Notes under the pieces: model-generated
The model's input: only the letters and a program-made list of their open reading frames with translations
What the model was told of the DNA's origin: nothing
Databases searched by the model: none
DNA from: a virus
Taxonomy: Duplodnaviria; Heunggongvirae; Uroviricota; Caudoviricetes
Virus record (IMG/VR): IMGVR_UViG_3300037471_001511
Coordinates: 1 to 64,000 of that record
DNA: 64,000 nucleotides
Reading direction: 5' to 3' (one strand)
Position numbers and translations under genes: made by a program
Shown: positions 20,342 through 43,874 of the stretch, piece after piece
Layout: every line of letters begins with the position of its first letter
How positions within the stretch are numbered: position 1 is the stretch's first letter

Positions 20342-20353
20342 GTTTCCCTCCTT

Positions 20354-20596
20354 CTACAGGAACCACGTTTCGACGATCACAGGGTCGTCTTCTGGCGCCC
20401 TGTTGATCTGGTTGCAGAACCCTTCGCCCACGATGCGCTCCCGCAGCTCGTCAAGCGACTTCGAGATCAGGACGACACCGGTCGGTCGCGGCTCCGGCAG
20501 CGCGAACCACAGTCGGGCCACGTAGCTGTCCGGGCAGTCCGCCGGCTTGTCCGTCACCACCCAGTGTGGAAGCCAGTTCGGGTCGATGTTCGTCAT
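20354..20596 (-). CDS. hypothetical protein (about 80 aa)
   Basis: internal ATG (MTNIDPNWLPHWVV...); upstream part of track ORF is Arg/Ser-rich. Confidence 0.35.
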   Translation of the reverse strand: MTNIDPNWLPHWVVTDKPADCPDSYVARLWFALPEPRPTGVVLISKSLDELRERIVGEGFCNQINRAPEDDPVIVETWFL

Positions 20597-20704
20597 GGGT
20601 TTCGTTCCACGGAGACGGCGCGCCGCAGCGGGCGCACTCGGCCGAGAATGGCTGGTCCGTCTCGACGTCCCAAGCGTGGCCGACAAGTTTGCACCACAGA
20701 CGGA

Positions 20705-21016
20705 TCACAGGTCGGGCCTCTTAATCCCGCCCGGCGGTCGACGGATGATCGCGACGAGGAAGATGACGGTCAGCACCAGCATCAGGATGTTGGGCGCCGC
20801 GACCCATACAGGTTTGTGACCAGCGATGTTGCGCCCAAGCTCGCCGAGGTAGTTGCCGAGGACGGCCCCCCATCCCCCCAGCGCCATCGCCCGGAAGAAC
20901 TGGACGTCGCGGATCGCCAGGTCCATTACCCGTTCGAAGCGGGCAAACAGTTCTTCAATTGCTGTCGGCGCCCACGGCCCCCGCGCGCGTGGGTTCAGGT
21001 CGGGGAGGGTGTTCAC
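20705..21016 (-). CDS. membrane protein (C-terminal TM), co-transcribed with repressor
   Basis: NILMLVLTVIFLVAII TM segment; 4-bp overlap with repressor stop. Confidence 0.5.
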   Translation of the reverse strand: MNTLPDLNPRARGPWAPTAIEELFARFERVMDLAIRDVQFFRAMALGGWGAVLGNYLGELGRNIAGHKPVWVAAPNILMLVLTVIFLVAIIRRPPGGIKRPDL

Positions 21017-21645
21017 GCGACCTTCTCCACGAGGTAGCCGCTCCCGGTCGTCCGCACGGCGAGTCGTCCGGCCCCCACGCTGGCGGCCATCGACTTGACG
21101 GCCTGCGGCGAGCTGAAGATCCCGAACGGGAAGGTGATCTTCTCACCGGTGGATTTTTCGAGCAGCGATTCCATCTGCAGCCGCTCGGGCGACTTCTGCC
21201 GCCCGGTCTGCCGCGGCTGCACGGCGACGGTGACGGCGTCCTCACGGATCGGCGGCAGGTCGTTCCTGCAGCGAAGCTGACTGGCGCCTACGGCGAGATC
21301 CCTGATCAGCTTGCGCTGGGCCGGATGCAGTTCGAGCAGGGCGGTGACGATCTCATGACCGTAGTCGACCGCGAGCAGCTGCTCGAGCGGCGAGGAGGGC
21401 ATCTCGTACCCGGCCTCCAAGCCCTCGAAGAAGTAGGAAATGGGGACCTGCAGCTTCTTCGCCGCCATCATCAGGCTCGACGAGGAAACCCGGTTGGTGC
21501 CTTTCTCGTACTTCTGAACCTGCTGGAACGTGACCTCCATCGCGGTGGCCAGTTCCGATTGGGACACTCCGATCTGCTTGCGACGCGATCGGATACGAGT
21601 ACCCACGTAAACGTCGACTTCGTGCAAACCACTACCCCCGGTCAC
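21013..21645 (-). CDS. XRE-family HTH transcriptional regulator, candidate phage repressor (GTG start)
   Basis: IRSRRKQIGVSQSELATAMEVTFQQVQKYEKGTNRVSSSSLMMAAKKLQVPISYF is a classic XRE/Cro-CI HTH; about 110-aa C-terminal extension of unclear type. Confidence 0.7.
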   Translation of the reverse strand: MTGGSGLHEVDVYVGTRIRSRRKQIGVSQSELATAMEVTFQQVQKYEKGTNRVSSSSLMMAAKKLQVPISYFFEGLEAGYEMPSSPLEQLLAVDYGHEIVTALLELHPAQRKLIRDLAVGASQLRCRNDLPPIREDAVTVAVQPRQTGRQKSPERLQMESLLEKSTGEKITFPFGIFSSPQAVKSMAASVGAGRLAVRTTGSGYLVEKVA

Positions 21646-21797
21646 ATGTACCCGCGACGGTAGTAGCGTCGTTTCAGGGTTGTAAAGCCCCCTTGCGACG
21701 GCTGCGGCAAGAAATCACGATTTTTCACGATGAATGTTCGGTGAAAGACGATCACCTGAAAGAAATCGTGGGCCGGTGAACACGTTCGCTCATGAAC
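21646..21797. promoter_or_regulatory. AT-richer promoter/operator region with TCACGAT-type repeats upstream of the repressor gene
   Basis: AAATCACGAT-ttt-TCACGATG ... ACGATCAC ... AAATCGTG (21711-21772). Confidence 0.45.
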
Positions 21798-25067: not shown

Positions 25068-25104
25068 GGTTCCAGCGGAACAGTTTCTTAGTTCCACTGG
25101 AACC
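25068..25104. promoter_or_regulatory. tandem motif copies GGTTCCAGCGGAAC and GTTCCACTGGAACC
   Basis: two copies 10 bp apart in the 310-bp gap upstream of the tail-fibre operon. Confidence 0.5.
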
Positions 25105-25172
25105 GGACAGTTCGTTGATCGGCGCTGATCAACGCAGGTGTATGTACGAGTCGGCCACGGGGTTGTGGCTCT

Positions 25173-25907
25173 CTACTCCTGACACGAACTCGGGGCGGAT
25201 CCGCAAAGGTCCGCCCTCTCTTTTAAGGCCCGGAAGGCCTTCACCCACCGTCGGCACAGGTCGCTGCGGACCACGTCCTCTTCGGTGAATTTGGTCACTG
25301 CGTGAGGGATGTCCTCCGCCCACGCCATCTGCAGCAACGTCGCAAGCACCCGTTCATCGGGAACGCGGTCGGACTGGTCGGGATCGCCTTCGATCACCAG
25401 ACGCGTGCCCGGTCCGTGCCTGGTCAGGACAGCCTCGGCCTGTTTCAACGACAGGTTTTGGGCTTCCGACACATGCACCAGAGCGTTGCTAAATGTCCTC
25501 CCTCGAATGTGAGCGATGGTGCAAAACTCGATGCGCTGTTGGTCTAACCAATTTCGAGTCCTGTCAACACCAGCGATCAAACGCACTTCCTGCAGCACCG
25601 GTTTCATCCATGGCTCAGTTTTTTGGTTTAGCGAGCCAGGCAGGTATCCCATCTCCTCGTCGTCCACCGCTATTGTTGGCCGGACGATGATGTACTTCTC
25701 GATCCCGCGCAGCGGATCTTCATCGTATTCGAGTAGACCTGCAACCGCTCTGTGCGCCGTTACATAGGTCTTGCCGGTCCCGGCGGGGCCGATCGCGAAG
25801 ACGAGGTCCGCAGAATTCAACTGCTCATGATAGCGTTGCTGGTTGGGCCGGCGGGCGCGAAAGGGCGGCAGCGGCTGGGGATCTGCCTTCTTCTTGCGCT
25901 GGGTCAA
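25173..25907 (-). CDS. phoH: PhoH-like ATPase
   Basis: Walker A VFAIGPAGTGKTY and PhoH-family core. Confidence 0.8.
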   Translation of the reverse strand: MTQRKKKADPQPLPPFRARRPNQQRYHEQLNSADLVFAIGPAGTGKTYVTAHRAVAGLLEYDEDPLRGIEKYIIVRPTIAVDDEEMGYLPGSLNQKTEPWMKPVLQEVRLIAGVDRTRNWLDQQRIEFCTIAHIRGRTFSNALVHVSEAQNLSLKQAEAVLTRHGPGTRLVIEGDPDQSDRVPDERVLATLLQMAWAEDIPHAVTKFTEEDVVRSDLCRRWVKAFRALKERADLCGSAPSSCQE

Positions 25908-26226
25908 CGCAGGCTCCCTCGATTATTTTGTTGGCCGCGAGGATGGAACAGACGCTGCGCAGCTGCCGTTCGCAGCCACGGTAGGCCTCGACGGCCTTGC
26001 GGCCCCATGTCGCAATTTCGGCGTCTGTGGCGCCCGGTCCCCAGGTCTGTGGATAGTTCGCCGGGCAGCGAAATTCAGTGGCGGGCAGTTTGAACGGCGG
26101 TCCCGGCGCCGTCGGGGCAGTCACCCTGAAGGGAGCACAGCTGGCGACGAAGCTCGACGACAGCAGGAGAAGAAGCACACTGGCGGTCCTGCGCACGGCC
26201 GGCCTCCTGGATTTTCGCGATGTCAC
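25825..26226 (-). CDS. outer-membrane lipoprotein, candidate o-spanin
   Basis: signal plus lipobox LLLLLSSSFVASC, Pro-rich mature part; start embedded in the i-spanin gene in another frame; 3' end overlaps phoH. Confidence 0.5.
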   Translation of the reverse strand: MTSRKSRRPAVRRTASVLLLLLSSSFVASCAPFRVTAPTAPGPPFKLPATEFRCPANYPQTWGPGATDAEIATWGRKAVEAYRGCERQLRSVCSILAANKIIEGACVDPAQEEGRSPAAAALSRPPAQPATLS

Positions 26227-28188: not shown

Positions 28189-31100
28189 TCACAACCGGAT
28201 TGTGTATTTTCCACCCCCGCCGAGAGGCGGAGGCGGCGGGGGCGAGTAACCACCTGTCGTCAACTGGGTCAGCATGGCGCCGATGTAGAAGTACCGGCTG
28301 ATGTCCGTCCAATACGCGCCGGCGTTTTGCAGCGTGGCCGCGACATAGGTCATGGTCTGCAGGTCGAGGAACACATGATACCAGGTGTTCGCCGACAGGC
28401 CGTTGATCGCCGCGCCAGGCGCGCTCAGCGTTTCGGGACCGGGCAGCGTGTAGGTGTGCGCCGCGACGACGATGGCCGTTGAGAACGAGGACATCGGCGC
28501 GTCGTTGTCGCGGAAGTAGCTGTTGCCGGTCAACACGTTGCGCGCCAGCGCCCGGTAGTTGGTCATCACCCCCGACGTGTCGAAGTGCTGGGTGCGGTCG
28601 ACCACGTACTGGGAGTCCTGCAGGTTGCCCAGCGGCGTGCCCTGCGGCGCGCCGATCGTGGCGCCGAACTCGCCTTCCATGCCCTCCGTGAACGACGGAT
28701 TGGTCGTGGCGGTGCTGTGGATCTGCCGCAGGAACGGCATCTCGATCCCGAGCGTGCAGCCGCCGGTGGTCGTCGTGGCCTTCAGACCGATGAACTCCAC
28801 GTAGCAGAACTTGGCGGTGGCCGGGGCGTCGACGATCTCGAACGCCTCGGTGTCGTCCACGGTCGCGTCGAAGCTGCTCACCGGGGTCGGGTCGGCGATC
28901 GGCGTCAGGTTCTTGGTGAAGAACTTCACCCGCACACGCAGGCCGGTCGCGCCGGGACCGCGGCCGGTCAGGGTTCCCCCGCCCGCGTAGCGCTTGCCGC
29001 CCTTGATCTTGATGTACTGCGCCTTTCCCTTGGTGGTGTCGACGCCCAAGCTGCAGGCCGCGAACACGGTGTTGCCGGCCTGGCCCGTGCTGGTGCCGAG
29101 GATCATCACGGGATCCCCGGTCGTTCCGCCGAGGATCAGGCTCGAGGTGTTCAGCGTCGCCCCGCCGCCCGGGTTCTGGGTGATCGAGTGACCTTTGATG
29201 CCGAGCTGGTAGCGGGTCAGGCGGATCAGGTTGGAGCCGGCCGCGTTGATCGCGGACAGATCAGCCCCACTGGCCGACGCCGCGACATCGACTTGGGCAG
29301 GCACCGTGTACCAGTTCAGATCCTGCTGGCTGTAGGCGTCGTAGTGCGCCACCTGCACCGAATAGCTGCCCGGGGCGAGCGGGATGGTGACCTGCGCCGC
29401 CTTACCCGCGTCCTTCGCCGGTAGCCCGTTCACCTGCACCAGCGTGCCGGCGAAGTCGAGTTCGGGCGGCGGATCCCAGTCGACCAGCAGCGCGCCGGTC
29501 AACCCGGTCGCGTCCACGCCCACGGGCGTGGCCGGGGCCGGGTTGGTGACCGTCAGCTCGATTTCCGGCGACTCCTCGCCGAACTGATCGACGCAGCAGA
29601 CCTGGAAAGTGAAGGTCCGCAGGATCGTGCTCGCGAGCTGGTCGGGGAAATTGTACTTCCACGACCGCGCGTCGTTCACGTCGGCCTGCCGCACGAGCTG
29701 GCCGGTGTCGGGGTCGATGATCTTCACCCGGTAGGTCTTGAACAGCGGATCCGGGCTCAGCGGCGGATCCCACTCGAACACCGGGTCGAGCGTCTCGAAC
29801 GTCGTGCCGCCGCCGACCAGGCGCACGTTCTCGGGCGGGTCGAGCGCGCGGATCAGCAGGTCGCCGATCTCGTCGTTGTCGGAGACGTTGAAGAAGATCC
29901 GCACCGGCTTGCTTTCGCGGCCGAGCACGTTGATCGCCGTCACGTCGAAGACGTACTGACCCCGCTGCGCGTACGGCATGCGGAACTCGGTCAGGTACGT
30001 CTCCGACTCGTTGATCGGCTGGTTATTGACGTAGGCCTTGACCCGGAACCGGCGTACCCAGCGGTTCAGCGGCTTCACCCAGCTGATCACCAGGATCCGG
30101 CTGACGACGGCGCCGTGACGCTCGGTCAGCACGTCCACCTTCGCGCCGCGGATCTCGTCGACGAAGGTGTTGCTCAGGTCCGTGTAGCTCAGGTCGGGCT
30201 GTTCGACCGCCGTGTCGATGTAGGCGAACTTGTTCCGGTTCAGCTCGAGGGCGGTGAGCGTGATCACCTCGCCGGTGCTGGAGTCGTCGTCGATGTCGAG
30301 CAGACGGTACGGCTTGGGCAGGCCGGTCACCCCGTCGGCCGACAACGCGAAGGCGGCGTACTCCGGCAGGTTGTCCGGCAGGTCGTCGGCGAACTCGAGC
30401 GTGCTCAGGCCCGAGCCGGCCGGGGTGGCGACCTCGAGCTGGACGATCTTGAACGGGTTGGTTTCCCCGGCCGGGTAAGCCGGGTTCCGGATGGTGAAGG
30501 TGGCGATGTAGGTGAAGCCCGCCTCGAGCGAGACAGGGTCGCGCAGGGAGACCTGGCGCGGCCCGGTCACTTCGCGCACGCGCCCGGACAGGCCCCGCCC
30601 CTGTTTGGGATCGGCCACGAGGATCACGTCCCACTCGCGGAGGAACTTGCCCTGCCGGTTGGTGGTGAAGGTGACGAACTCCTTTTCGGTCAGGCCGCCG
30701 ATCAGGCGCCGGCGCATGCGCCGGTCGGCCTCCCACACGTTGGTGCAGCCGACCATCTCGAAGGGCTCGGTGATCCGGCCGTAGTCGGCGATGTCCTGCT
30801 CGTCGCGGAGGATGCGGGTGTCCGACTGCCAGTTCAGCTCCGGATTGATGAAGGTGCCCTGGATCTCGTTGGCGCGGGTCTGGCGGTCCGAGTAGCTGTA
30901 CTTGAAGCCGTCCTCGCTGACGTTCTCGGGCGTGAACAGCGCCACCGGATCATCGTTGGCGTCGATCAGGATCTCGACGTTGCCCGCGCCGTCGTCCACG
31001 TATTTGGCCGCGCCGATCGAGGCGATGAACTGCGCCATCTCCCGCGCGTCGCGGGGCTGCTGCAGGTAGTCGTTGTAGGTCCAGCGCGGCTGGGTCGTGC

Positions 31101-32643
31101 CGTCGGGCAGCGGCACCCGCTCGTCGCAGGACACGCCCCACTGGTAGATCTGGGCGTTGTTGACGACGTGCGGATAGACCGACGACAGGCCGTAGCGGTC
31201 GTTCTCGACGAAGTCCTTGAACACGAAGGCGGGGTTGTTGTTGCACGCCAGCTTCCAGGTGCCGTCCCACGTTCCGCTGAAGATGCGCGTGTCGGGATCG
31301 TAGTTCGACGGCACGCGGATGATCCGGCCCATGTAGATGCCGTTCCATGTCGGCAGGGCCGTGAACTGGTCGGACGCTTGGCCGACCACGCGGGCCATCG
31401 CCAGACCGTAGAAGGTCCGCGCCTCGCGCTTGATCTCCGTGAAGCTCTCGAAGGTGACGTCGCGGAACTGGGTCTTCGCGTTGCTGTCGGGGGACAGCTT
31501 GGTCACCCGCACCTCGACCGGGTATTCCTGCTTGGGGATCAGGATCCGGATGTCCTTGGGCGTGGGCGAAGTCGCCTTGGCGACGATCGACCAGACGCCG
31601 TCCTCGGTAGACCCTGAAATGATCTGGGTGGGGCTGCCCGACTTCAGCCAGCTTCCGGTGAAGTAGATGTACCACTGACCGTTGCTGGTGTTCTTCCACA
31701 TGTCGCCCGCGACCGCGTTCTTGCGCATGTCGGCGGTGAGCGAGGGCGTAGCCGGCCAGATCCGGTGGACCCGCCCCTGCTGATCGGTGAAGCTGCCGCC
31801 GGTGATGGTGCTGGCGTCGAGGATCTGTTCCCACGTCTGCTCCGGCAGGGTGTTCAGCACCACGTCGTCGGCGAACAGCGCCACCGGGTGGGATTGGGCG
31901 TAGAGCGTGCCGGTGAGCGTATCCTCGTAGACCGCGTTCGGATCGGTGACGGTCGTGGAGACCGAGGGCGGCCCCTCCCCGGTCACGATCTGGCGGGAGC
32001 CTTGGAAGGTGGCCGACGTCGGCGCCGAGGCGGTGGTGTCGCTGGTCCAGTGGTCGCCGGTCGGATCGCCGCTCGGCGGGAACGTGTCCGGCACCTCGAT
32101 GTGGGCGGCCGCCGGGATCGCGGGACGCCACGCCGCCTCGTGGATGCCTTTCCACTCGAGCTTGACCTTCAGGTCGAGTTCGAAGGTGCCGTCGTCGTTG
32201 GTCTTCTGCAGGTTGTTGACGACGAGGCGGAAGTCGATGGCGTCGATGCCGTAGGTCAGACCACGGCGGACGACGGGCGTGTCCTGGGCCAGCGGTACGC
32301 CCACCTGGATCGGGTTCGCGAAGCCGCCGAGGTGCATCGCCACCTCGTGGCCGGTCTCGTTGCCGGGCCAGGTGTCGAGCGTGAAGTTCTTGAAGTTGGG
32401 CTTGCCGCTGCCCTCGTTGATCAGCGGCGTGTCGTCCAGCATGAACGACTTCGGCCCGTTCTTCAGACCGAGGATCGGCCCCTCGGAGATCCCGAGCAGC
32501 ACCTCGACCGTATCGTCCGACCGCAGCGTGTCCGGCGTGCGTTGGGGCGAGTCGCCCGAGCCGCCCTTGCGGAAGAGCAGTTCCTGTCCCATCACGCCGC
32601 CTCGCTGAACATCTCGGGGGTGACGACGGCGCGGCCCACGCAA
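28189..32643 (-). CDS. tail tip/host-specificity protein (lambda gpJ-like), 1484 aa
   Basis: size, position after gpI-like gene, Thr/Gly/Asp-rich beta-rich sequence with fibronectin-III-like stretches. Confidence 0.75.
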   Translation of the reverse strand: MRGPRRRHPRDVQRGGVMGQELLFRKGGSGDSPQRTPDTLRSDDTVEVLLGISEGPILGLKNGPKSFMLDDTPLINEGSGKPNFKNFTLDTWPGNETGHEVAMHLGGFANPIQVGVPLAQDTPVVRRGLTYGIDAIDFRLVVNNLQKTNDDGTFELDLKVKLEWKGIHEAAWRPAIPAAAHIEVPDTFPPSGDPTGDHWTSDTTASAPTSATFQGSRQIVTGEGPPSVSTTVTDPNAVYEDTLTGTLYAQSHPVALFADDVVLNTLPEQTWEQILDASTITGGSFTDQQGRVHRIWPATPSLTADMRKNAVAGDMWKNTSNGQWYIYFTGSWLKSGSPTQIISGSTEDGVWSIVAKATSPTPKDIRILIPKQEYPVEVRVTKLSPDSNAKTQFRDVTFESFTEIKREARTFYGLAMARVVGQASDQFTALPTWNGIYMGRIIRVPSNYDPDTRIFSGTWDGTWKLACNNNPAFVFKDFVENDRYGLSSVYPHVVNNAQIYQWGVSCDERVPLPDGTTQPRWTYNDYLQQPRDAREMAQFIASIGAAKYVDDGAGNVEILIDANDDPVALFTPENVSEDGFKYSYSDRQTRANEIQGTFINPELNWQSDTRILRDEQDIADYGRITEPFEMVGCTNVWEADRRMRRRLIGGLTEKEFVTFTTNRQGKFLREWDVILVADPKQGRGLSGRVREVTGPRQVSLRDPVSLEAGFTYIATFTIRNPAYPAGETNPFKIVQLEVATPAGSGLSTLEFADDLPDNLPEYAAFALSADGVTGLPKPYRLLDIDDDSSTGEVITLTALELNRNKFAYIDTAVEQPDLSYTDLSNTFVDEIRGAKVDVLTERHGAVVSRILVISWVKPLNRWVRRFRVKAYVNNQPINESETYLTEFRMPYAQRGQYVFDVTAINVLGRESKPVRIFFNVSDNDEIGDLLIRALDPPENVRLVGGGTTFETLDPVFEWDPPLSPDPLFKTYRVKIIDPDTGQLVRQADVNDARSWKYNFPDQLASTILRTFTFQVCCVDQFGEESPEIELTVTNPAPATPVGVDATGLTGALLVDWDPPPELDFAGTLVQVNGLPAKDAGKAAQVTIPLAPGSYSVQVAHYDAYSQQDLNWYTVPAQVDVAASASGADLSAINAAGSNLIRLTRYQLGIKGHSITQNPGGGATLNTSSLILGGTTGDPVMILGTSTGQAGNTVFAACSLGVDTTKGKAQYIKIKGGKRYAGGGTLTGRGPGATGLRVRVKFFTKNLTPIADPTPVSSFDATVDDTEAFEIVDAPATAKFCYVEFIGLKATTTTGGCTLGIEMPFLRQIHSTATTNPSFTEGMEGEFGATIGAPQGTPLGNLQDSQYVVDRTQHFDTSGVMTNYRALARNVLTGNSYFRDNDAPMSSFSTAIVVAAHTYTLPGPETLSAPGAAINGLSANTWYHVFLDLQTMTYVAATLQNAGAYWTDISRYFYIGAMLTQLTTGGYSPPPPPPLGGGGKYTIRL

Positions 32644-33764
32644 CCGAAGCGGTCGTCGTAGGTCATGCAGCTGGCTTCCTGCTCGCTCAGGTACGCGTGC
32701 CGGGCGGAGTGGGAGTCGGGCGCGGCCAGCGTCGGGTGCTGGATCACCTTGACGCCCGGGAACTCCTTCTCGTCGACGTGGTGCCGGTGCCCGGTGTGGA
32801 TGTAGCGCTTGCGGGTCGCGCCCCAGACCACCGGGTAGCGCGCGGCGAACAGCAGCGGCAGGCTCTCGTTCTTGGCCAGATGGCCGTGGTGCATGCCCAG
32901 CATCACCACGCCGTGCTGGTGGACGTAGTAGGGCAGTTCGGAGTCATCGACGAACAGCCGCGGCTCGCGCTCGTACAGCGCCTTGAACATGTGCCGCAGC
33001 CACAGCGAGGACACGAGGTCGTGGTTGCCCTCCGCGAACACCACGTAGACTTCCTCGTGCGTGCGCAGCGCCAGGTCGATCATCCGCCGCAGCACCCGGA
33101 TCGCCGCCGCGATGATCTCCGAGAGCTTGCCGGCCGCGTCGAGGACGTGGCCGTGGGTGGGCGTGACCGGCAGCAGGCTGTCGAAGTGCAGGAAGTCGCC
33201 TTGGATGTTCAGCAGCGCCGTCCGGGCCGCCGGCGCCGAGACCAGCATGTGGCGAAACACCGAGAACAGCAGCCGCTCGGCGATCTCGATGTTCCAGTCG
33301 GCGCCGGTCTCCTTGCCCCAAGCCAGCATGCCGAGGTGGTAGTCGGTGAAGGTGTAGAGGTTCAGCAGGTGGGCGAAGACGTCGTCCGGCGGCGCGATCG
33401 GCTCGAGCCGAGGCAGCTCCGCGGTCATCGCCTCGAGCGCGGCCTGCCGTGCGGCCTCGAGCTGCTCGGCGTCCGGCTTGGCCTGCACCCACTGGCCGCC
33501 GACCTTGCCGTCACGGCCGTAATAGGTGGACACCTTGCTGACTTGGAAGGTGTCGGGCACCGGGCGGGTCATCCCGTGTTCAGGCGCGTAGCCGCGGCTC
33601 GCTGCCTTGGCGACCAGTCGCTTGATCGTCACCCGGATGGTGCCGTCGCTGACGCCGAGCACCCGGGCGGCGGGACGGAAGCCGCCGTACTTGTTCACGG
33701 CCTCGAGGAACTCGCTCTGCCGGGGCGAGGCGTAGCGCTTCAGGCCCTCGTCGAGCGGCTTCAT
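32592..33764 (-). CDS. N-terminal HTH fused to calcineurin-like metallophosphoesterase, embedded in tail module
   Basis: HTH GGFRPAARVLGVSDGTIRVTIKRL; phosphoesterase motifs TDYH (DxH), QGDF (GD), FAEGNHD (GNHD), GMHHGH, HTGHRHH (GHxH). Confidence 0.7.
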   Translation of the reverse strand: MKPLDEGLKRYASPRQSEFLEAVNKYGGFRPAARVLGVSDGTIRVTIKRLVAKAASRGYAPEHGMTRPVPDTFQVSKVSTYYGRDGKVGGQWVQAKPDAEQLEAARQAALEAMTAELPRLEPIAPPDDVFAHLLNLYTFTDYHLGMLAWGKETGADWNIEIAERLLFSVFRHMLVSAPAARTALLNIQGDFLHFDSLLPVTPTHGHVLDAAGKLSEIIAAAIRVLRRMIDLALRTHEEVYVVFAEGNHDLVSSLWLRHMFKALYEREPRLFVDDSELPYYVHQHGVVMLGMHHGHLAKNESLPLLFAARYPVVWGATRKRYIHTGHRHHVDEKEFPGVKVIQHPTLAAPDSHSARHAYLSEQEASCMTYDDRFGCVGRAVVTPEMFSEAA

Positions 33765-34321
33765 TTCTTGCCCACGTCCTTGGCGTCGATGTTCAAGGAC
33801 ATGATGTGGCCGCCGCAGCGGTACTCGCCGTAGAGCAGCGGGATCGGTGTCCCGATCTTCACGGTGTTCTGGGTCGAGGGAAGGTACTTGGAGCGCTTCT
33901 CGGGGCTCTCCGGCTTGGGCACCGGGTAGAGCATCTGCATGACGCCGCCGATCACCAGCGATAGGCCCATCATGAACAGCTTCAACGACAGCGTGCCGCC
34001 GGTGAATTCGTCCATGGGCGCGATGGCGATGGCCGTGATGATCAGGACCACCCCGATGATCGTCTGGATCACCCCCTGCCGCTTGGCGAAGGTCAGCGCC
34101 GGGAAGACGTGGATGTCCTCCTCGTTGGTCGGCGCGCGCAGACTCTCCAAGCTGTAGAAGCCGGCGACCTGGACGCGCTTGCGGCCGTCGAGGTCCGGCT
34201 TGAAGCCCGGGAGCTGGCGGGTCACCAGCTCGATGGCCTCCCAGACCGTGGCCGCCACCACTTCGATCGGCCCGTCGTGGAAGGCGGCGAAGGCGCCGTG
34301 CAGGTGGACACGCTTACGCAT
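33761..34321 (-). CDS. tail assembly protein (lambda gpI-like)
   Basis: size, position and hydrophobic central segment IIGVVLIITAIAIAP. Confidence 0.55.
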   Translation of the reverse strand: MRKRVHLHGAFAAFHDGPIEVVAATVWEAIELVTRQLPGFKPDLDGRKRVQVAGFYSLESLRAPTNEEDIHVFPALTFAKRQGVIQTIIGVVLIITAIAIAPMDEFTGGTLSLKLFMMGLSLVIGGVMQMLYPVPKPESPEKRSKYLPSTQNTVKIGTPIPLLYGEYRCGGHIMSLNIDAKDVGKK

Positions 34322-34658
34322 TGACCACCGCCCTTCCCTTGACGGCGTACCAGCGTACTCCGTCGGTCCCGACGATGGCGTGCAGCCACGCGGGCCAGCC
34401 CCGGAAGGTCTCCCAGTCTTCGGTGGTCAAAGTGGCGCTGGCGTCCGGATGGGTGTGCCAGCTCGCCACCACGCGGTGTTCGTACGGGATCAGTTGCCCG
34501 ACGTCGAAGACCGCCAGGTTTTCAGGGTCGTCGGCCAGATTGATGAACTCGACGACGCTGCCGTCGTCGAGGATCACCCCTCCCCGTTCAGGTCCGGGGG
34601 CCAGCCGCTCCGTCAGCGCCGCGTCGAGTTCTGAGTTCTTCCAGGCGGCGTTCGACAT
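34314..34658 (-). CDS. JAB/MPN-domain protein (lambda gpK N-terminal-like) as a separate gene
   Basis: SWHTHPDASATLTTED approximates the JAMM HxHx7Sx2D motif. Confidence 0.5.
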   Translation of the reverse strand: MSNAAWKNSELDAALTERLAPGPERGGVILDDGSVVEFINLADDPENLAVFDVGQLIPYEHRVVASWHTHPDASATLTTEDWETFRGWPAWLHAIVGTDGVRWYAVKGRAVVNA

Positions 34659-35109
34659 GCTGCGGGAGCACCGTTCGGAAATCGACAGCGGTCTCGACGC
34701 GGACCCTCGGCGCGCTCTTGTGCCGATAGACCCCGACGAGGTTGTTCCTGAAGATCCCGCCGTAAGCGGTCTCGCAGGACAGTTGTCCGACTAGGTGATG
34801 CAGGATCCTGTTATTGTCGAGCCAGATCATGCAGTGATTTCCAATGGAACTTTCCACTGCGGACACCAGCACGTCGCCGACTTTCCACTCCCGTGGATTT
34901 AATTCCACTGGAACGAAATCTTCCTCGGCCGCCAGATCACGGAACAGGTCGAGCGAGCAGAACCCCTGCCCCCAGTTGGCCGGGTAGGGGTAGTCGCTCA
35001 GCTCGAGGCCGAAGTTGTCCCGGTAGAAGTCCCGCACCAGCGTGTAGCAGTAGCGGGCGTTGGGATCCCACGGGATGCCGATCAGGTGCCGGTAGCGCAG
35101 CTCGTTCAT
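34588..35109 (-). CDS. NlpC/P60-family protein (lambda gpK C-terminal-like)
   Basis: RYCYTLV...GNHCMIW...HH Cys/His pattern; ATG 35109. Confidence 0.55.
   Translation of the reverse strand: MNELRYRHLIGIPWDPNARYCYTLVRDFYRDNFGLELSDYPYPANWGQGFCSLDLFRDLAAEEDFVPVELNPREWKVGDVLVSAVESSIGNHCMIWLDNNRILHHLVGQLSCETAYGGIFRNNLVGVYRHKSAPRVRVETAVDFRTVLPQHVERRLEELRTRRGADGAAGPRT
34837..34915. promoter_or_regulatory. intragenic cluster of four motif-family copies inside the NlpC/P60 gene
   Basis: ATTTCCAATGGAAC, TTTCCACTGCGGAC, TTTCCACTCCCGTGGA, ATTCCACTGGAACG within 80 bp; local GC clearly below genome average. Confidence 0.45.
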
Positions 35110-35906
35110 CACAGCACCACGAACGGATAACCTTCGCTCGGCGAGAAGATCCGGCGCGGCGTCTGCCATGCCGGCATGTCGAGCGGCGAACCGAGTTCGA
35201 GCGTCAGCACCTGGTCGGTGACCTCGAGCGGCCGGCGCACCAGCCACAGGCGCTTCTGGAAGATGTTGACGTTGGCGAGCACGTGCCGGCCGAGCACGCG
35301 GAAGCGCGTCACCTCCGCCAGATCGAAGAAGCCCTCGGCAGCGTAGGCGCCGAAGACGTTCTCCGGGTTGACCACGATCAGTTTCGGCCGGGCCGCCTGG
35401 TCGTCGGTCGAGCGCCGCTCGCCCTGCATCTGACAGGCCAGCGCCTCATAGGTCTCGCCCTGCCAGACAATCTCGGCGCCGTCGCTCACGGCCTGGGTGA
35501 AGCGGTAGATGATGCCCACCTTCTTCAGGCGGATCTCCCACAGGTCGACGTAGCCGTCGGCCTCGAGCTTGAGCGACTCGTCGATGTGGTCCCCGGGCGG
35601 CGCCCCCGGGCCGACCTGCGGGACGCTGGGCGGCAGCGGCGGAGGCGGCGGAGGCGGCGGAGGCGGCGGCGAGGGCAGCGGACCGGGATCGTCGGGGCTG
35701 TCGTAGAGCACCGCGAACGCGGTCAGCTTGGAGACCTTGTACTCTTCCGACGGGACGAGTACCGCGAACTTGCTGATCTTGGTGGCGACGACAGCGTCCG
35801 AAGGCGGCCCCAGCACCGCGAAGCCCGTTACCTTGGTGACGACGGGATTGCCGGTCGGGGGCGTCAGGACCGCGAACGCTACGAGCTTGGAGACGTCCAC
35901 GCTCAC
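35109..35906 (-). CDS. minor tail protein (lambda gpL-like) with N-terminal 4x repeat module and polyproline linker
   Basis: repeats VSKLVAFAVLTPP, VTKVTGFAVLGPP, ATKISKFAVLVP, VSKLTAFAVLYDSP; PPPPPPPPPPPLPP; gpL-like C-terminal half. Confidence 0.6.
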   Translation of the reverse strand: MSVDVSKLVAFAVLTPPTGNPVVTKVTGFAVLGPPSDAVVATKISKFAVLVPSEEYKVSKLTAFAVLYDSPDDPGPLPSPPPPPPPPPPPLPPSVPQVGPGAPPGDHIDESLKLEADGYVDLWEIRLKKVGIIYRFTQAVSDGAEIVWQGETYEALACQMQGERRSTDDQAARPKLIVVNPENVFGAYAAEGFFDLAEVTRFRVLGRHVLANVNIFQKRLWLVRRPLEVTDQVLTLELGSPLDMPAWQTPRRIFSPSEGYPFVVL

Positions 35907-36289
35907 AGCGGTTGCTCCACCAAGGTCAGCTCGAGCTTGTCGGTGGCCCCCGCCGCGTTCTTCAGGCTCTGCGGCGTCTCAAGCGGCTCCTTGAACCGGA
36001 CGATCAGAGTTCCATACACCGGGTGCGGGTAGAGGAACTTCTTCCAGGTCTGGTGTTCCTCATAGAACTCGATCAGCCGCTGCATGTTGATGCCCGGCTC
36101 GGTCGCGGTGTCGGCCGAACCGTCGTCGTTCAGGAACCAGACCATCGCCTCGAAGGTCAGCTTGAACGTCCGCTGCGGCGGACCGAACGGCTTGGCGGCG
36201 AACTCGTAGCCGTTGCCGAACTTGAAGCTGTCGCCCTTCGGGTAGACGTGGGTGACCGTGTGGTTGGGGAAATCGAAGATCTCCATCAC
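35903..36289 (-). CDS. minor tail protein (lambda gpM-like)
   Basis: size and position between tape measure and gpL-like gene. Confidence 0.55.
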   Translation of the reverse strand: MMEIFDFPNHTVTHVYPKGDSFKFGNGYEFAAKPFGPPQRTFKLTFEAMVWFLNDDGSADTATEPGINMQRLIEFYEEHQTWKKFLYPHPVYGTLIVRFKEPLETPQSLKNAAGATDKLELTLVEQPL

Positions 36290-39200
36290 AGCCCCCCGAC
36301 CTGGACTTGTTTGATCAGCTTCTTGGTCATCCCGCCGGTCTGGATGTCGTCGGAGATGACGGCGATCACGTCGCGCTTGGTCATCTGCGGCTTGTGGTTC
36401 GGCGCGACGACGTAGACGTTGACCTGATCGGGCTCGCGCTTCTGCTGCGCAGCCATGGGCGTGACCGCGCTGAGCCGGCGGTTGCCCATGGCGTTGACCT
36501 GCGACAGATGATCCTCGCCGATCATGTCAACCGCCGACTTGTTCAGGATCGCCTCGCCCGGCATCACCTTGGCGAGCACGCTGTCACGGAACGGCGCCGG
36601 CGTGCCCTGCGCGTAGCCGCGGACCGGCACCATGCCTTGCGCCGCCGCCATCCAGCCGGACGCCTCGCCCGCCGTGGAGAGGATGTCGGCGGTCTCGGCG
36701 GCGGGCGCCCCCATCCCGAACGCCCCCAGCACCGCGTTGGTGATGCCGCTGAACGTGCCGCCGGCGCCGAAGGCGTTGGCGATGCCTTGGATGGCCGCCT
36801 TCGCGGCGATCTCCGCAAGCATGTCGAGCGCCGCGTCCAGGATGCGGTGGATCATGCCCATGATCCCCTGCTCGACCGATACTTGGCCGGAGAGGATGTC
36901 GTGGATCGACGACCGCAGGCCTTCCTTGGCCTCGGCGAAGACGTTGCGCATGCCATCCGCGACGTCGGCGAGGACCGGCCGGTTTAGGCTCGCCTGTTCA
37001 CGGAAGCTCGCCCAAGCCGCCGCGATGGCCTCCGACGCGTTCTGGAATTCCTGGGCCGGCGCGGTCAGGCTGTCGAGCCGGACCTTCGTGGCGGCTACCG
37101 CCCGCTCGGCGTCTTGGAACGCGCGCGCGGTCTCACGCGCTTGGGCGGCGAACTCCTTGCTGCCGGTATCGGTCGCCGCCTTGTGCTGCGCCTCGACCAT
37201 CTCGCCGCGGCGCTTTTCCATCTCCGCGACGGCGCGGTTGTAGTCTGCCCGGGCGGCGTCGGCGGCGTTCAGGTCAGAGATCCGCTGCACGATCCGCTCG
37301 CGCTGCACCTCGCCGACCCGGCCTCGATTGATCGGGTTGTCGAGCGCGGCGAGCACGCCCTCGCGACGGGTGATCCGCTGGCGAACCACCTGCTCTTCGT
37401 TGATGGCGCGTTGCAGCACCGCCTCGAGCAGCGTGTTCGCGTCGGTCGCGGCCTTGTCGACGTACTCGTTGGTGATCTTCCGGCGCGCCTCGACCGCCTC
37501 GTGCGCGGTCGCCACCTGCTCGGCGGTCAGGTGCTTCTCACGCATGAACTTGGCGTCGGAGGCCGCGAGCGCCTGCTTCAGCGCATCCTGCCACGCCGTC
37601 ATGACGCCCTTGTTGGCCTGCTCGAGCGTCATCGAGCCGTTCTCGACGGCCTGGGCGGCGTCGGCGGTGGTCCGGTTGGCGGTCCGCTCGGCCTCGAGCG
37701 CCAGCAGGTCGTGGTAGGCTTCCAGGTTGCCGCCCACGATCTTGTCGAGGAACGCCTTGACGTCCTTGTCGCGGAAGGCCTCCAGACGTTCCTGCAACTG
37801 GCCGGCGTCGATCCCTTCGGCCTTGCCCTGCTGGCGGATGGCGTTCTCCTTCAACGCCTTCCACTGATCGAGCATGGCTTGGAGCTGCTTCAGTTTCTCC
37901 GGGTCCTGCAGATCCTTGGCCTCGGGGCCGAAGGACGCGACGAAGCTCTCGATCTGCTGCTGCAGGGCGTCGGCCTGCTTGGCAAAGGTGGTCGACCGGC
38001 TCTTGGCGGCCATGTCGAACTTCGAGCCGCCGCCACGCTCAGGCTTGAGCGGCGTGTTCTCAGCGATCCCGAGGTTGTCGGCGGCGGTCGCCGGGTCTTC
38101 GCCGTTGGCGATGGCCTTGTCGAACGCGGCTTCGGCCTTGAGACCCTGCGCCTTCTTACGCAGCTCGTCACGCTTCTTCTTGTCCTTCTCGTTCGCGGCC
38201 TCGGCCTCGTACTTCTTGGCCAGCACCTCTTTGGTCGACGCCGGCATGTCGGCGAGCTGCCGGCCGCCCGCCGCCGCGATCTCGGGACCACCCTCGACAC
38301 GGGACAGCAGGTATTCCTCCGCCGCCTTGTTCAGATCGACGACTTTGTTCTTGGCCTTGGGGTCGACGAAGATGCCGCGCCGATTAGCGAAGGCGGTGAG
38401 CATCTCCGTCGCGCCCGGCGTCTTCAGGAAGTCGGGCACGTTGGACTGCACGGTCTTCAGCAGTTCCTGATAGTTCTGCTGCGCCTGCGTGCGCCCTTGT
38501 AGGGCGGCGGCGGCCTTCTCGGCGGTGGTCCCGCCCGGCTGCGGTTTCTCCCGATGGATAATCGTGTCCGCCGCGCCCTGCACGTTCTGGTACGCCTTGC
38601 TGAGTACGGCGTCGGTTTGGCTCAGCTGTTCGTTCAGCGTGTCGATGTGACGATCCTGCGCCTCCACCTCGTTGGCTTGGATGGTCGCCTGGTCGAGCCC
38701 CTGTGTCAGGCCGCGCGCGTCGATGCCGCGGAATAGCCCGGCGTTCAGCGGCTTCCGGCCCGATCCCTCCGCCGGATGGTTCGCCTTGAACAGCTGGTCC
38801 TGAAGCTTGCGGAAGTCGGCCGGAGCGAGGGTCTTGCCCTGCGCCAGCACCTCGACCAGTTTTTTGTCCACGCCGGCTTCCTCGAGCGCGCCGCCGCGAA
38901 GCAGCAGCAGGCTCTGGGCGTAGCCCCGGGTCATCTGCACCGCCTTGTCGCGAGCCGACTCGGCGGCGTTGCGGGTGGCGGTGGCCTTCGAGCGCTCGAG
39001 CACGAGGAAGTCGCGGGCCTGCTTGGCCTGCTCGACGCTCAACTGGCGCAGCTTCACGATCAGGCCGTCGACATGGATCCCCACGTCGTCGATCTTCAGG
39101 CCCCAGTCCCCGAACTTCTTGATCGCGTTCTCGGTCGCGGTCCGGACGTTGTTGGTCTCGCCCGCTAGGTCGGCGTGGTGGTTGGTCAGGAACTTGATGT

Positions 39201-43061: not shown

Positions 43062-43078
43062 CGGTTCCAGTAGAACCG
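43062..43078. promoter_or_regulatory. motif copy CGGTTCCAGTAGAACCG
   Basis: between the major tail gene and the G/GT genes. Confidence 0.4.
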
Positions 43079-43079
43079 G

Positions 43080-43874
43080 TTAGCGCTTCAGCACCTTCCA
43101 GGTCTTCAGCCCGCCGAATTCAGCATAGTGCGCGTCCGCCGGCAGCAGCGTGTACGGCGTGAACTCGAACGGCATGTTGCTGAAGTTGTCGGTCTGGAAG
43201 GCCAGATTGATGCCCTTGGTGATCTTCACTTTCGGGAAGATCAGCACGCAGGGCTCGCCCGACTCCGGCAGGTTGCCGACCAGCTTGATGCCGTACTGGG
43301 GCTGGCGGGCTTGGCCGCCCACGTTGATCGAGTGGACCCGGTAGACCGTGGTGGTGGCGACCGCCCAGCTCCGCTTGATCGGGTAGCCCGACGCCATGGT
43401 CAGGGTGTCGGTGGACTTGGACGCGACCTTGCCGACGTAGACGTCGTCGGAGTCGGTGGTCTGCATCAGCACCCAGTCGCCCGCGGCGAAGTCGGCGCCG
43501 TCGCCGGTGCCCAGAGGCAGCGTCACGTTGCTCGGACCGCCGGTGATCGCCGAGCCCAGCGCGTAGGTGTCGGTGATCGGGTCGTACGTGGACGGCGAAC
43601 CGTCGAGGCCGGCGCCGTAGGCCAGGTTGCGGGCGGTGTATTCGTAGATCTCGGCCGAGATCTTGGCAGTGTTCTGGGTGTTCACCGAGGCCACGACCTG
43701 CGCCTGCACGCCCTGCGTCAGCTCGACGAAGGACTGCTCCACGCTCACCTGGACGTTCTTCACCAGTCCGAGGCTGTGCGTGGTGGGGATCAGATCGAAG
43801 ACGTCCGCCGACGGGCCGACCATGAGGGTCGCGTTGGTCAGCAGGAAGTCATTGGTTTTAGCCTCACCGCTCAT
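43080..43874 (-). CDS. major tail protein (gpV-like)
   Basis: 264 aa, position upstream of G/GT, Thr/Val/Gly-rich. Confidence 0.6.
   Translation of the reverse strand: MSGEAKTNDFLLTNATLMVGPSADVFDLIPTTHSLGLVKNVQVSVEQSFVELTQGVQAQVVASVNTQNTAKISAEIYEYTARNLAYGAGLDGSPSTYDPITDTYALGSAITGGPSNVTLPLGTGDGADFAAGDWVLMQTTDSDDVYVGKVASKSTDTLTMASGYPIKRSWAVATTTVYRVHSINVGGQARQPQYGIKLVGNLPESGEPCVLIFPKVKITKGINLAFQTDNFSNMPFEFTPYTLLPADAHYAEFGGLKTWKVLKR

Follow-up and report, generated by a model that had tools for sequence, protein, structure and literature searches.

The NlpC/P60 tail-tip gene in the 64-kb stretch of phage DNA analysed here (the window) carries a cluster of sites related to a palindrome that is found mostly in the intergenic regions of the same DNA. 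Codon usage indicates that these sites are not a by-product of the encoded protein and that the DNA is under selection independent of that protein. The explanation that we put first, with confidence a little short of even, is that the cluster is an array of binding sites for the same, probably dimeric, protein as the ~10 intergenic copies, and that it works in cis as an operator or roadblock on the distal late genes.

A palindrome family dispersed over the window

The palindrome family is real. Its consensus, GTTCCAsTGGAAC, is a 13-bp symmetric dyad (GGTTCCAsTGGAACC in the 15-bp form), and with at most one mismatch allowed we found 13 occurrences of TTCCANTGGAA in the whole window (0.66 expected) and 10 occurrences of GTTCCANTGGAAC (0.14 expected). 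Ten strong copies are scattered over the 64 kb, one of them intragenic (site B, see below), and nine of the 10 strongest copies are intergenic, although 90% of the window is coding. Copies were scored with a matrix built from the ten copies outside the NlpC/P60 gene, the NlpC/P60 sites being left out; nine of these ten score 19.8–25.3 bits and the tenth (at 12689) scores 13.9 bits. The copies outside the gene are as follows (no strand is assigned to them):

1570–1582: perfect intergenic copy, 4 nt past a stop codon and ~50 nt before a Holliday-junction-resolvase-like gene
12657–12701: one strong and one weak copy, 32 bp apart, directly past the ribonucleotide reductase terminator (hairpin 12609–12638) and ~250 nt upstream of the integrase gene
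25069–25103: two intergenic copies, 22 bp apart, downstream of the PhoH gene, with hairpins on the flanks
43064–43076: intergenic copy, 3 nt past the stop codon of a 264-aa gene (43080–43874), with a G+C-rich hairpin and then TTT right after it
56535–56565: two copies with a spacing of 18 bp, where the large-terminase operon (minus strand) and the PrimPol/helicase operon (plus strand) diverge; the flanking genes encode GpA_ATPase and Prim-Pol/D5_N domains
59958–59970: perfect intergenic copy between two small minus-strand genes
60530–60542: intergenic copy ATTCCACTGGAAT, with both outer bases changed symmetrically, adjoining an AT-rich repeat region

Weaker intergenic matches are found at 15.5, 20.3, 44.0 and 62.7 kb. 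Another weak match, in the capsid gene (48176), is composed of preferred codons and so serves as an example of how a chance match looks.

The arms of the palindrome are conserved and its centre is variable, and paired copies are spaced 18, 22, 32 and 64 bp; a symmetric dyad of 13–15 bp with these properties fits binding by dimers. Its only asymmetric features are the central base and a T5 variant, and the orientation pattern that they give has a chance probability of ~0.06–0.12. The copies stand at no constant distance from start codons (50–280 nt). Given these variable distances and a copy placed between a stop codon and a terminator-like hairpin, one promoter–operator logic cannot cover all sites.

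Each copy could also be read as a small RNA hairpin (GGUUCC-AsU-GGAACC) that is the target of an RNA-binding factor or RNase and serves in processing, stability or antitermination. This would agree with the position of several copies beside terminator-like hairpins at operon ends, with the compensatory A...T pair at site 60530, with the ability of sites A and B of the NlpC/P60 gene to pair in a long imperfect hairpin, and with the strong mismatched copies that have a clear transcription direction (12657, 43064 and 34902), as all three differ by a transition after which the sense RNA can still form a G-U pair. But this orientation evidence amounts to only about 1 in 8, the hairpins are weak (stems of 5–7 bp closed by 3-nt loops, with energies of −2.3 to −8.1 kcal/mol that are for the most part no better than those of shuffled sequences), the fold of the whole patch around the NlpC/P60 cluster has a z-score of only −1.9, and there is no match to an Rfam family. 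A conserved stem with a variable loop is, moreover, the opposite of typical protein–RNA hairpin sites and is typical of DNA half-site recognition. We consider an RNA-level element the least probable of the readings discussed here.

Sites inside the NlpC/P60 gene

A preliminary description of this DNA reported four copies of the palindrome within the tail gene. The strings that it quoted, ATTTCCAATGGAAC (34837–34850), TTTCCACTGCGGAC (34851–34864), TTCCACTCCCGTGGA (34883–34897) and ATTCCACTGGAACG (34902–34915), are all present within the minus-strand gene at 34588–35109, and the peptide given for them is correct; but only two of the four are palindromes (34902–34914 and 34838–34850), and the other two are half sites. 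The gene, its cluster and the genes downstream are:

34588–35109, minus strand: NlpC/P60 (C40 peptidase) tail-tip gene, which carries the cluster (Pfam PF00877, 36.7 bits against a cut-off of 23, E 4e-9)
34780–34941, minus strand: patch of low GC3 and unusual codons, codons 57–110 of the NlpC/P60 gene, holding the cluster and ~30–60 bp on each side
34838–34850, no strand assigned: site A, weaker copy TTTCCAATGGAAC (12/13 match to the consensus, 11.2 bits)
34849–34858, no strand assigned: half site 1, ACTTTCCACT, with the left arm TTCCAC only (exact 10-mer repeat; −7.1 bits as a full palindrome)
34880–34889, no strand assigned: half site 2, ACTTTCCACT, identical to half site 1 and 31 bp away from it (4.5 bits as a full palindrome)
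34902–34914, no strand assigned: site B, strong copy ATTCCACTGGAAC, sense strand GTTCCAGTGGAAT (12/13 match to the consensus, 21.9 bits)
28189–34658, minus strand: genes downstream of the cluster, with no intergenic gap (junction overlaps of 4–71 nt), namely the following four
34314–34658, minus strand: JAB-like gene, overlapping NlpC/P60 by 71 nt (Prok-JAB E 2e-4, below the Pfam cut-off)
33761–34321, minus strand: ORF of 186 aa
32592–33764, minus strand: metallophosphoesterase gene
28189–32643, minus strand: gene for a gpJ-like tip protein (FNIII-A_GpJ, Phage-tail_3; PHROG 704, E 2e-109)

Both palindromes lie within the coding sequence (codons 66–70 and 86–91), in a reading frame that is backed by the alignment with 7 homologues. 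Their centres are 64 bp apart, and each has one mismatch to the 13-bp dyad, at the outermost base; the strings at 34851 and 34883 have more than one. Site B is the only strong copy within a gene, with a score inside the strong intergenic range (19.8–25.3 bits). It is coded by V66 P67 V68 E69 L70 (relative use GTT 0.03, CCA 0.04, GAA 0.24 and TTA 0.002); its TTA is one of at most six TTA codons and may be read by the phage's own tRNA(UAA). Site A is coded by E86 S87 S88 I89 G90 N91 (AGT 0.03, ATT 0.04, GGA 0.05 and AAT 0.07) and scores only 11.2 bits because of its central A; an A/T at the centre is found in no other copy.

Half site 1 is the core of what had been described as the second copy (34851), and its rare codons are GCA (0.03) and AGT (0.03). 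Half site 2 (E74 W75 K76 V77, with the rare codon AAA, 0.10) overlaps a small inverted repeat, TCCAC-N4-GTGGA (34884–34897), which had been described as the third. The two half sites lie in different reading frames, so that the 10-mer does not reflect a repeat in the peptide. The cluster packs four repeats into 77 bp and is the densest array in the window.

When the patch was compared with the rest of the window, only a 12-bp palindrome was found to be shared, and a copy-and-paste origin of the patch was rejected on this ground.

Codon usage of the patch

The patch had been called AT-rich, and its GC content is indeed 0.52 against 0.665; GC3 at 34837–34926 is 0.50 against a genome mean of 0.92 (sd 0.08). 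The codon anomaly is wider than had been described, covering codons 57–110 (about 34780–34941): GC3 of the NlpC/P60 gene is 0.98 in codons 1–56, 0.59 in codons 57–110 and 0.88 in codons 111–150. Rare codons make up 20 out of 54 in codons 57–110 (baseline 6.8%, P 1e-10) and nine out of 28 in the patch flanks alone (P 6e-5), and the codons of the motif mostly have a relative use of 0.2–5%.

Synonymous resampling with the codon usage of the window gave P values of 1e-4 for the best site and 5e-5 for the second site, and a count of seven TTCCA/TGGAA pentamers was reached in none of 20000 resamplings. The more conservative permutation of synonymous codons within the gene gave 0.002 for the best site, 0.0007 for the second and 0.00025 for the pentamer count. 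The rare motif codons, these probabilities and the identical half sites in different frames together point to selection on the DNA itself. The core idea of the preliminary description, that protein coding overlaps a binding-site cluster, thus receives strong support from the codon evidence and from a site that matches the intergenic copies.

It could be argued that the patch has no dedicated function and is a codon oddity (a rare-codon pause, a mosaic from a lower-GC relative or a local mutation bias) that happens to contain motif-like strings. Such an origin would account for the excess of rare codons past the motif, and the relatives are in fact lower in GC (0.60–0.61). However, rare codons alone do not yield 12/13 and 21.9-bit matches (P 0.002 and 0.0007 in the composition-keeping permutation), the GC3 of the patch (0.50–0.59) is below that of the relatives' genes (0.68–0.76), the homologues have no GC3 dip at the patch position, and a mere 12-bp palindrome is common to the patch and the remaining window. 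We regard this explanation as improbable.

Homologues and motif searches

The NlpC/P60 protein tolerates the motif. C21, H92, H104 and H105 do not vary across the alignment with 7 homologues; the residues beneath the motif differ from one family member to another, and S87, G90 and N91, which are conserved, are retained with rare codons. The nearest phage for this protein is Caulobacter phage Seuss (50% identical). No relatives of the protein were found in IMG/VR, and a search of 5.8 billion proteins returned only the protein itself and homologues with no more than 51% identity. Among Logan contigs, two match the window with 100% identity.

The homologues have GC-rich codons over the region of the patch, with no motif and no GC3 dip. 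Free codon variation without the motif is what the preliminary description had named as evidence against an overlapping element, and such homologues do exist; but they make an unfair test, as they are at most 51% identical and the motif is missing from the 5–40 kb fetched of each of their genomes, so that the regulatory system is not one that they have in common with this phage. We accordingly assign the feature to the regulatory system of this phage and not to the gene family. In the fetched parts of Seuss and of two metagenomic relatives we found neither the motif nor an enriched palindrome of their own.

A scan of IMG/VR for the motif returned only single chance matches and low-GC coding tandem repeats, and among the matches listed in a metagenome scan there was no locus with any protein in common with the window; five metagenome loci with two matches were inspected, of which two are paralogous coding repeats and three are single unrelated sites. 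A literature search for the exact motif returned only papers on archaeal ORBs and unrelated primers.

Phage character and candidate binding proteins

Judging by its genes, the window comes from a temperate, bacterial lambda-like siphophage (NlpC/P60, gpL/gpJ-like genes, GpA-type terminase). Its temperate hallmarks are an integrase gene (PHROG_1, E 1.5e-11), a CI-like HTH protein and two further HTH proteins; the replication genes encode PrimPol/D5 and a family A polymerase, and the structural genes are bacterial and lambda-like. A tRNA/attP region lies at 14.2–14.7 kb. The candidate DNA-binding proteins are:

18802–19281, minus strand: sigma-70 region 4-like protein (Sigma70_r4_2, E 5e-13)
19278–19991, minus strand: HTH protein (HTH_23)
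21013–21645, minus strand: XRE/CI-like HTH protein (HTH_3, E 9e-11), resembling the 434 and P22 C2 repressors

None of these proteins (18802–21645) could be linked to the motif in a co-occurrence search. The palindrome is absent upstream of the CI-like gene, where other repeats stand, and near 80 homologues of the XRE/CI-like protein (1.29 Mb of DNA) the motif occurs at background density, with no enrichment. The two other HTH proteins have no relatives in IMG/VR. A 153-aa protein that is encoded beside the divergent copies has conserved counterparts in Seuss- and JWF-type phages; the 40 kb fetched of Seuss is free of the motif.

A probable control point in a gene block without intergenic DNA

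From 42982 to 27805 the tail block consists of ~15 kb of abutting or overlapping genes with no intergenic gaps, so that a control point there must be intragenic. In the explanation that we favour, a sequence-specific and probably dimeric protein would recognise the ~10 intergenic GGTTCCAsTGGAACC copies as well as the NlpC/P60 cluster, the latter having been written into the coding sequence at synonymous and tolerant positions. Protein bound to site B, site A and the two half sites would act in cis on transcription that enters the JAB, phosphoesterase and gpJ genes from the tape-measure region. Such an intragenic operator or roadblock would help to keep the distal late genes silent or throttled, e.g. 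in a lysogen. We infer the protein binding, the identity of the binder and the direction of the effect on transcription alike. The unusual codons 30–60 bp beyond the sites speak against a roadblock, as a pure roadblock does not need them; a promoter or a larger nucleoprotein complex fits this part of the anomaly better. Nothing points to a packaging or recombination site, which had also been suggested: the motif is present at ~10 dispersed places, and a single-locus function (pac, cos, attP) does not fit such a distribution.

We favour the operator or roadblock role and place a regulated internal promoter second, as an unlikely but not negligible alternative. The cluster and the AT-shifted 160 bp would then drive the JAB, phosphoesterase and gpJ genes, with the palindrome-binding protein as activator or repressor. 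A rare-codon patch wider than the sites (9/28 in the flanks, P 6e-5) would be expected if a gene of 67% GC contained a −10 element or a melting region. The central base of site A, read in the sense direction, makes TTGGAA, a 4/6 match to the −35 hexamer, and the most AT-rich stretch, CAATAACA, lies ~25–30 nt downstream. The 71-nt overlap of the JAB gene with NlpC/P60 may hint at translation independent of NlpC/P60, and in the divergent terminase/primase region the palindrome centres are each ~68–70 nt from a start codon, a distance that would suit a site at about −41. On the other hand, a sigma-70-like promoter scan found no promoter in the patch or near any other palindrome copy: −35/−10 hexamers with a spacing of 16–18 nt are absent from both strands of 33500–36500 (by the E. 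coli consensus, which may not be that of the host). Nor is there a conserved −10-like element at a fixed distance from the copies. For an ECF-type promoter with a GGAAC −35 element (a sigma-70 region 4-like protein is encoded), the −10 element would be expected 16–17 nt downstream of GGAAC, but the copies have no 3- or 4-mer in common at any fixed downstream offset, whichever direction is read. Some copies, such as the one at 43064 with a stop codon on one side and a hairpin on the other, cannot serve the next gene as promoter elements.

Comparison with known systems

Among the systems closest to the present one are the stoperators of cluster A mycobacteriophages, which bind the L5 gp71-type repressor and are found at promoters and inside long structural operons; the bound repressor stops elongating RNA polymerase and silences the prophage (PMC9283540). 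The likeness lies in a site for a phage regulator that is repeated across the genome of a temperate, high G+C phage. However, stoperators are asymmetric 13-mers bound by a monomer, number more than 20, are strictly oriented with transcription and lie in short intergenic spaces, whereas here we have a symmetric dyad with ~10 strong copies, no clear orientation rule and a cluster deep in coding sequence.

Plasmid RK2, of about 60 kb, offers another comparison. Its KorB protein binds palindromic OB sites that are dispersed, lie from 4 bp to >1 kb from their target promoters and act at a distance (PMC11790492). By analogy, the palindrome could serve in cis for a protein that organises, partitions or replicates the genome, such as a clamp loader of the ParB/KorB kind or a primase-helicase that binds the origin. 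Such a protein would need copies at intervals, so that one of them would have to fall within the tail block, where there are no gaps. Between 1.6 and 56.5 kb, the six clusters of sites follow one another at distances of 8.2–13.5 kb with a CV of 0.17 (P ~0.002–0.004 for random placement, post hoc), the NlpC/P60 cluster is at most 0.8 kb from the midpoint between its neighbours, copies stand on both sides of the PrimPol/D5 helicase gene, and the densest array in an AT-shifted patch recalls iterons beside an AT-rich region. But this regularity is lost once the copies at 59.96 and 60.53 kb and the weaker matches at 15.5, 20.3, 44.0 and 62.7 kb are counted, and 34.9 kb does not stand out in GC skew. 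KorB, which acts together with KorA, is a CTPase of the ParB family with an unrelated sequence motif, and no ParB-family domain was found by Pfam in the ~60 proteins scanned from the part of the 74-kb contig covered here; this phage has an integrase and so needs no partition system. Sequence matches of the primase-helicase in the PDB cover the primase and helicase regions only and not the C-terminal 150 residues, and an origin-binding domain in this protein was rejected on that basis. A site of this kind is, in our judgement, very doubtful.

More speculatively, and quite unlikely in our estimate, the palindrome could be, in place of an ordinary promoter operator, the loading or anchoring site of a genome-wide system (a sliding-clamp silencer or DNA organiser, or an RNA-hairpin antitermination or processing factor) that needs a site every ~10 kb, strongly enough to have forced a tail gene into the rarest codons of the genome.

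In the lambda origin, four dyad-symmetric iterons lie inside the O gene and adjoin an AT-richer stretch, so that there too repeats are embedded in coding sequence. Those iterons, however, are at one locus and in the gene of the initiator itself, whereas the present motif is found at ~10 loci and its cluster is in a tail peptidase gene. The AT enrichment of the patch is modest (GC 0.52), and more AT-rich stretches are found at 60560–60638 (GC 0.34) and 62729–62807 (GC 0.28). A lambda-like iteron origin was rejected, as the motif is dispersed, the host gene is a tail peptidase gene and the patch is not strongly AT-rich.

The archaeal mini-ORB (TTCCAGTGGAAAC, bound by Orc1/Cdc6) has a core, TTCCAGTGGAA, that is identical, but the resemblance is in sequence only, and here no G-rich extension follows the dyad. 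An archaeal ORB or Orc1/Cdc6 origin was likewise rejected: no Orc1/Cdc6 was found, the replication genes are PrimPol/D5 and a family A polymerase, and the context is bacterial and lambda-like.

Sites at many separated genome positions, late regions included, are also seen in the conserved inverted repeats of phiC31, the C1 operators of P1 and the centromere repeats bound by SopB in N15. These systems differ from the present one in sequence and in binding protein, and we know of none among them whose dispersed sites have been described as built into a tail gene by means of very rare codons.

Implications

As a type, the feature is a variation on dispersed phage operators, which are already known. 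Within 15 kb of genes that have no DNA between them, the cluster is probably a control point to which a protein binds. It would belong to a new, putative regulon of dispersed palindromes, carried by an uncultivated temperate phage related to Caulobacter phage Seuss. If this is confirmed, it would provide a clear example from nature of a structural gene in a bacterial virus that has been overprinted with a regulatory array, with a signature that is visible in codon usage (GC3 goes down from 0.98 to 0.5, and rare codons reach 42% where the baseline is 7%). This suggests a general search in high-GC phages, in which local GC3 dips that coincide with an intergenic-enriched motif would indicate hidden intragenic control elements.

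Genome setting

The window has a G+C content of 66.5%, belongs to a 74-kb JGI contig and is matched at 100% identity by two Logan contigs. Its gene content reads as one tailed-phage genome, with these main parts:

~56.5 kb down to 14.7 kb, minus strand: GpA-type large terminase, capsid gene, 2013-aa tape-measure-sized ORF, gpM- and gpL-like minor tail genes, NlpC/P60 gene (34588-35109), JAB-like gene, metallophosphoesterase, gpJ-like tip protein, endolysin, PhoH and a small-gene block including three helix-turn-helix proteins
plus strand: PrimPol/D5 helicase, family A polymerase, SbcCD-like nuclease, ribonucleotide reductase and C5 methylase
12.9-14.7 kb: integrase (PHROG_1, E 1.5e-11) and a tRNA

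The integrase and tRNA indicate that the phage is temperate. The tRNA gene (anticodon UAA, 'Leu'; 14600-14672, minus strand, 73 nt) adjoins the integrase and seemingly lacks the long variable arm that is typical of bacterial tRNA-Leu. The metallophosphoesterase (32592-33764, minus strand), located between tail-tip assembly genes and the gpJ-like gene, resembles DNA-repair exonucleases (PHROG 704, E 2e-109), and a metagenomic relative has a 391-aa gene at the equivalent position. Downstream of the endolysin are two minus-strand ORFs, one for a PhoH-like ATPase, whose GC3 is lower (25173-25907), and one that is lipoprotein-like and perhaps encodes an o-spanin (25825-26226); paired palindromes at 25.07-25.10 kb come after them.

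A dispersed palindrome family

The preliminary description spoke of a 'regulatory palindrome', and as an enriched motif it is real: allowing at most one mismatch, TTCCANTGGAA occurs 13 times in the window (0.66 expected) and the extended dyad GTTCCANTGGAAC 10 times (0.14 expected). No other palindrome of the window comes near the enrichment of TTCCA-N-TGGAA (409-fold), and the full consensus is GGTTCCAsTGGAACC. A weight matrix trained on ten copies outside the NlpC/P60 gene sets ten strong sites (19.8-25.3 bits) apart from all others (at most 15.6 bits). Although 90% of the genome is coding, nine of these ten lie between genes:

1570: 4 nt past a stop codon, 50 nt ahead of the next gene
12657 (with a weak copy at 12689): directly past the ribonucleotide reductase terminator, 250 nt ahead of the integrase
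25069 and 25091: pair 22 bp apart, flanked by hairpins, downstream of PhoH
43064: 3 nt past the stop codon of a 264-aa gene, immediately ahead of a terminator-like hairpin
56535 and 56553: pair 18 bp apart, middle of the divergent terminase/PrimPol region
59958 and 60530: upstream of two small early genes

The tenth (34902-34914, site B) lies in the NlpC/P60 gene. Weaker matches (11-16 bits), too, lie mostly between genes or where two genes meet. The centre, CASTG, is the recognition sequence of TspRI; the window encodes a C5 cytosine DNA methyltransferase (2060-3226, plus strand; PF00145, E 1e-31). Four copies share an asymmetric extension, GGAAC-C(G)GACAGTT, always on the plus strand (1583-1592, 12670-12679, 25104-25113 and 56566-56575), which hints at composite sites in these four places; the copies in NlpC/P60 are without it.

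Among copies the dyad arms are conserved and the centre is variable; departures from the dyad keep its symmetry (A...T at 60530) or follow GTTCTACTGGAAC, a variant that recurs in three copies. Both this and the paired layout fit a dimeric DNA-binding protein. An RNA hairpin is the least probable reading of the palindrome: sense-strand mismatches are compatible with G-U pairs, but the hairpins formed are weak, and conservation concerns the sequence of the stem rather than its pairing.

In function the family is like the dispersed operators of phages or plasmids, such as stoperators and KorB OB sites; phiC31 CIRs, P1 C1 operators and N15 dispersed centromeres are further systems of this kind. 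It does not appear to belong to any of them. Stoperators are asymmetric whereas the site here is symmetric; an iteron origin occupies one locus only whereas the palindrome is dispersed; and the core of the archaeal mini-ORB is letter-for-letter identical, but the window otherwise holds nothing archaeal. A structural, partition or replication role, for which KorB/OB offers a precedent (PMC11790492), is quite unlikely. Clusters of strong sites (at 1576, 12675, 25086, 34876, 43070 and 56550) are regularly spaced by 8.2-13.5 kb (CV 0.17; P ~0.002-0.004 against random placement, a post hoc value calculated without the two copies near 60 kb, at 59.96 and 60.53 kb, and without weaker intergenic matches). 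KorB, however, is a ParB-family protein, of which none was found among the ~60 proteins scanned in the window, and the phage inserts itself into the chromosome of its host.

Sites inside the NlpC/P60 gene

All four strings reported as palindrome copies at 34837-34915 lie exactly there within the gene, and the peptide given for them is correct, but only two are palindromes. Site B scores 21.9 bits; site A (34838-34850) matches 12 of 13 dyad positions (11.2 bits) and has a central A, where every other copy has C or G. The remaining two score -7.1 and 4.5 bits and are half sites: two identical 10-mers, ACTTTCCACT, at 34849 and 34880 (31 bp apart), with one dyad arm each. The two 10-mers are read in different frames (E-W-K-V and A-V-E-S), so the pair is not a peptide repeat. 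Two further repeats bracket the cluster, neither significant individually: an exact 9-mer, GCCAGATCA, at 34821-34829 and 34931-34939 (110 bp apart, different reading frames), and a 21-nt direct repeat (71% identical, 31 bp apart) at 34783-34803 and 34814-34834.

Codon usage

The copies in this gene are neither chance nor a by-product of the protein. Motif codons are among the genome's rarest (relative use: TTA 0.002, GTT 0.03, GCA 0.03, AGT 0.03, CCA 0.04, ATT 0.04, GGA 0.05, AAT 0.07 and AAA 0.10). In 20 000 re-encodings of the same protein drawn from the codon usage of the window, a site of the quality of site B arose in 0.01% of trials, a second site matching site A in 0.005%, and seven TTCCA/TGGAA pentamers in none; a conservative permutation keeping the gene's own skewed codon set gave 0.002, 0.0007 and 0.00025 for the same three measures. 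That the cluster has no function is hard to square with these permutation tests, and we consider it very unlikely. A weak match in the capsid gene (48176) uses preferred codons throughout and is the picture of a chance match. TTA, which no codon of the genome undercuts in rarity, occurs at most six times in ~16,000 codons, once as L70 within site B.

The AT-rich patch noted earlier is borne out: GC3 is 0.50 at 34837-34926 (90 bp) against a genome value of 0.92 +/- 0.08, and along the gene it runs from 0.98 (codons 1-56) through 0.59 (57-110) to 0.88 (111-150). Comparably low stretches elsewhere are nearly all at ORF starts called too long or at gene overlaps. Rare codons, with a baseline of 6.8%, make up 11 of 26 in the cluster (P 4e-7) and 9 of 28 in its immediate flanks (P 6e-5). 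This reach of the anomaly past the sites would suit a regulated internal promoter, as would the odd central base of site A, which yields TTGGAA (sense) followed by AT-rich CAATAACA. Such a promoter, which the preliminary description had offered, is the leading alternative to the reading favoured below but nevertheless unlikely: a scan with the E. coli consensus, which may not be the host's, detected none, either here or at the other copies.

Homologues

Only seven homologues of the NlpC/P60 protein (the best 51% identical) were found in addition to that of Caulobacter phage Seuss, the closest described phage (50%). The alignment runs through the patch (codons 57-110; ~34780-34941) without indels and with P72, G78, D79 and H92 invariant, which shows that this stretch is truly coding. 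The patch sits over residues variable among homologues, including V-P-V-E-L beneath site B; the conserved S, G and N beneath site A are retained and encoded by rare codons. Seuss and two metagenomic relatives have GC-rich codons at this position, with no GC3 dip (0.95 in Seuss) and no motif in the 5-40 kb fetched per genome. Homologues without the motif had been named as evidence against an overlapping element. Formally they are what we found, but those phages lack the regulatory system altogether, so the result shows only that the overlay is lineage-specific. Close relatives for a synonymous comparison were absent from the searched collections, including IMG/VR and, among the matches listed, metagenomes (best protein 51% identical). 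The Seuss divergent primase/terminase region (1775-1850), equivalent to that of the window, is strongly AT-rich and contains AAATTCCA twice, one copy immediately ahead of TTGACC; it has no dyad like the window's.

Candidate proteins and other repeats

Three proteins of the window are candidate binders: one is a CI/434-like HTH protein, and the others have HTH or sigma-region-4-like domains; no link between the motif and any of the three was established. The palindrome is absent upstream of the CI-like gene (21646-21797) and is not enriched in the DNA surrounding 80 homologues of its product, and IMG/VR contains no relatives of the other two. The repeats upstream of the CI-like gene, TTTCAC-N12-GTGAAA (21723-21746) and direct repeats of ATCGTGA, are possible operators of its own protein.

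The early plus-strand region has a further palindrome, 18 bp long and perfect: TTTCCCCGGCCGGGGAAA stands four times within 2.1 kb (60790-60807, 61718-61735, 62049-62066 and 62861-62878), each time ahead of a small gene (at 62049, ~15 nt ahead of AAGGAG and ATG). Its outer arms, TTCC...GGAA, are identical to those of the main palindrome, and this motif may represent either another family of operators or a bidirectional hairpin. The window's most AT-rich stretches are 60540-60720 (GC 0.34) and 62729-62807 (GC 0.28); the former, a candidate origin or early promoter region, immediately adjoins the palindrome at 60530 and has four direct TTTTYGA repeats (60560, 60581, 60612 and 60635).

Proposed role of the cluster

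Adjacent tail genes between 42982 and 27805 either abut or share 1-71 nt; in these 15 kb of gapless genes any binding site must be intragenic. We tentatively favour, at somewhat below even chances, an intragenic array for a palindrome-binding protein that affects transcription into the downstream JAB-to-gpJ genes (28189-34658, minus strand); both the binding protein and the direction of its effect here are what we infer. Most likely the bound array would act as an operator or roadblock, comparable to mycobacteriophage stoperators (PMC9283540), and would strengthen silencing or throttle the distal tail genes. The observation itself is solid, and its codon signature is unusually clean.
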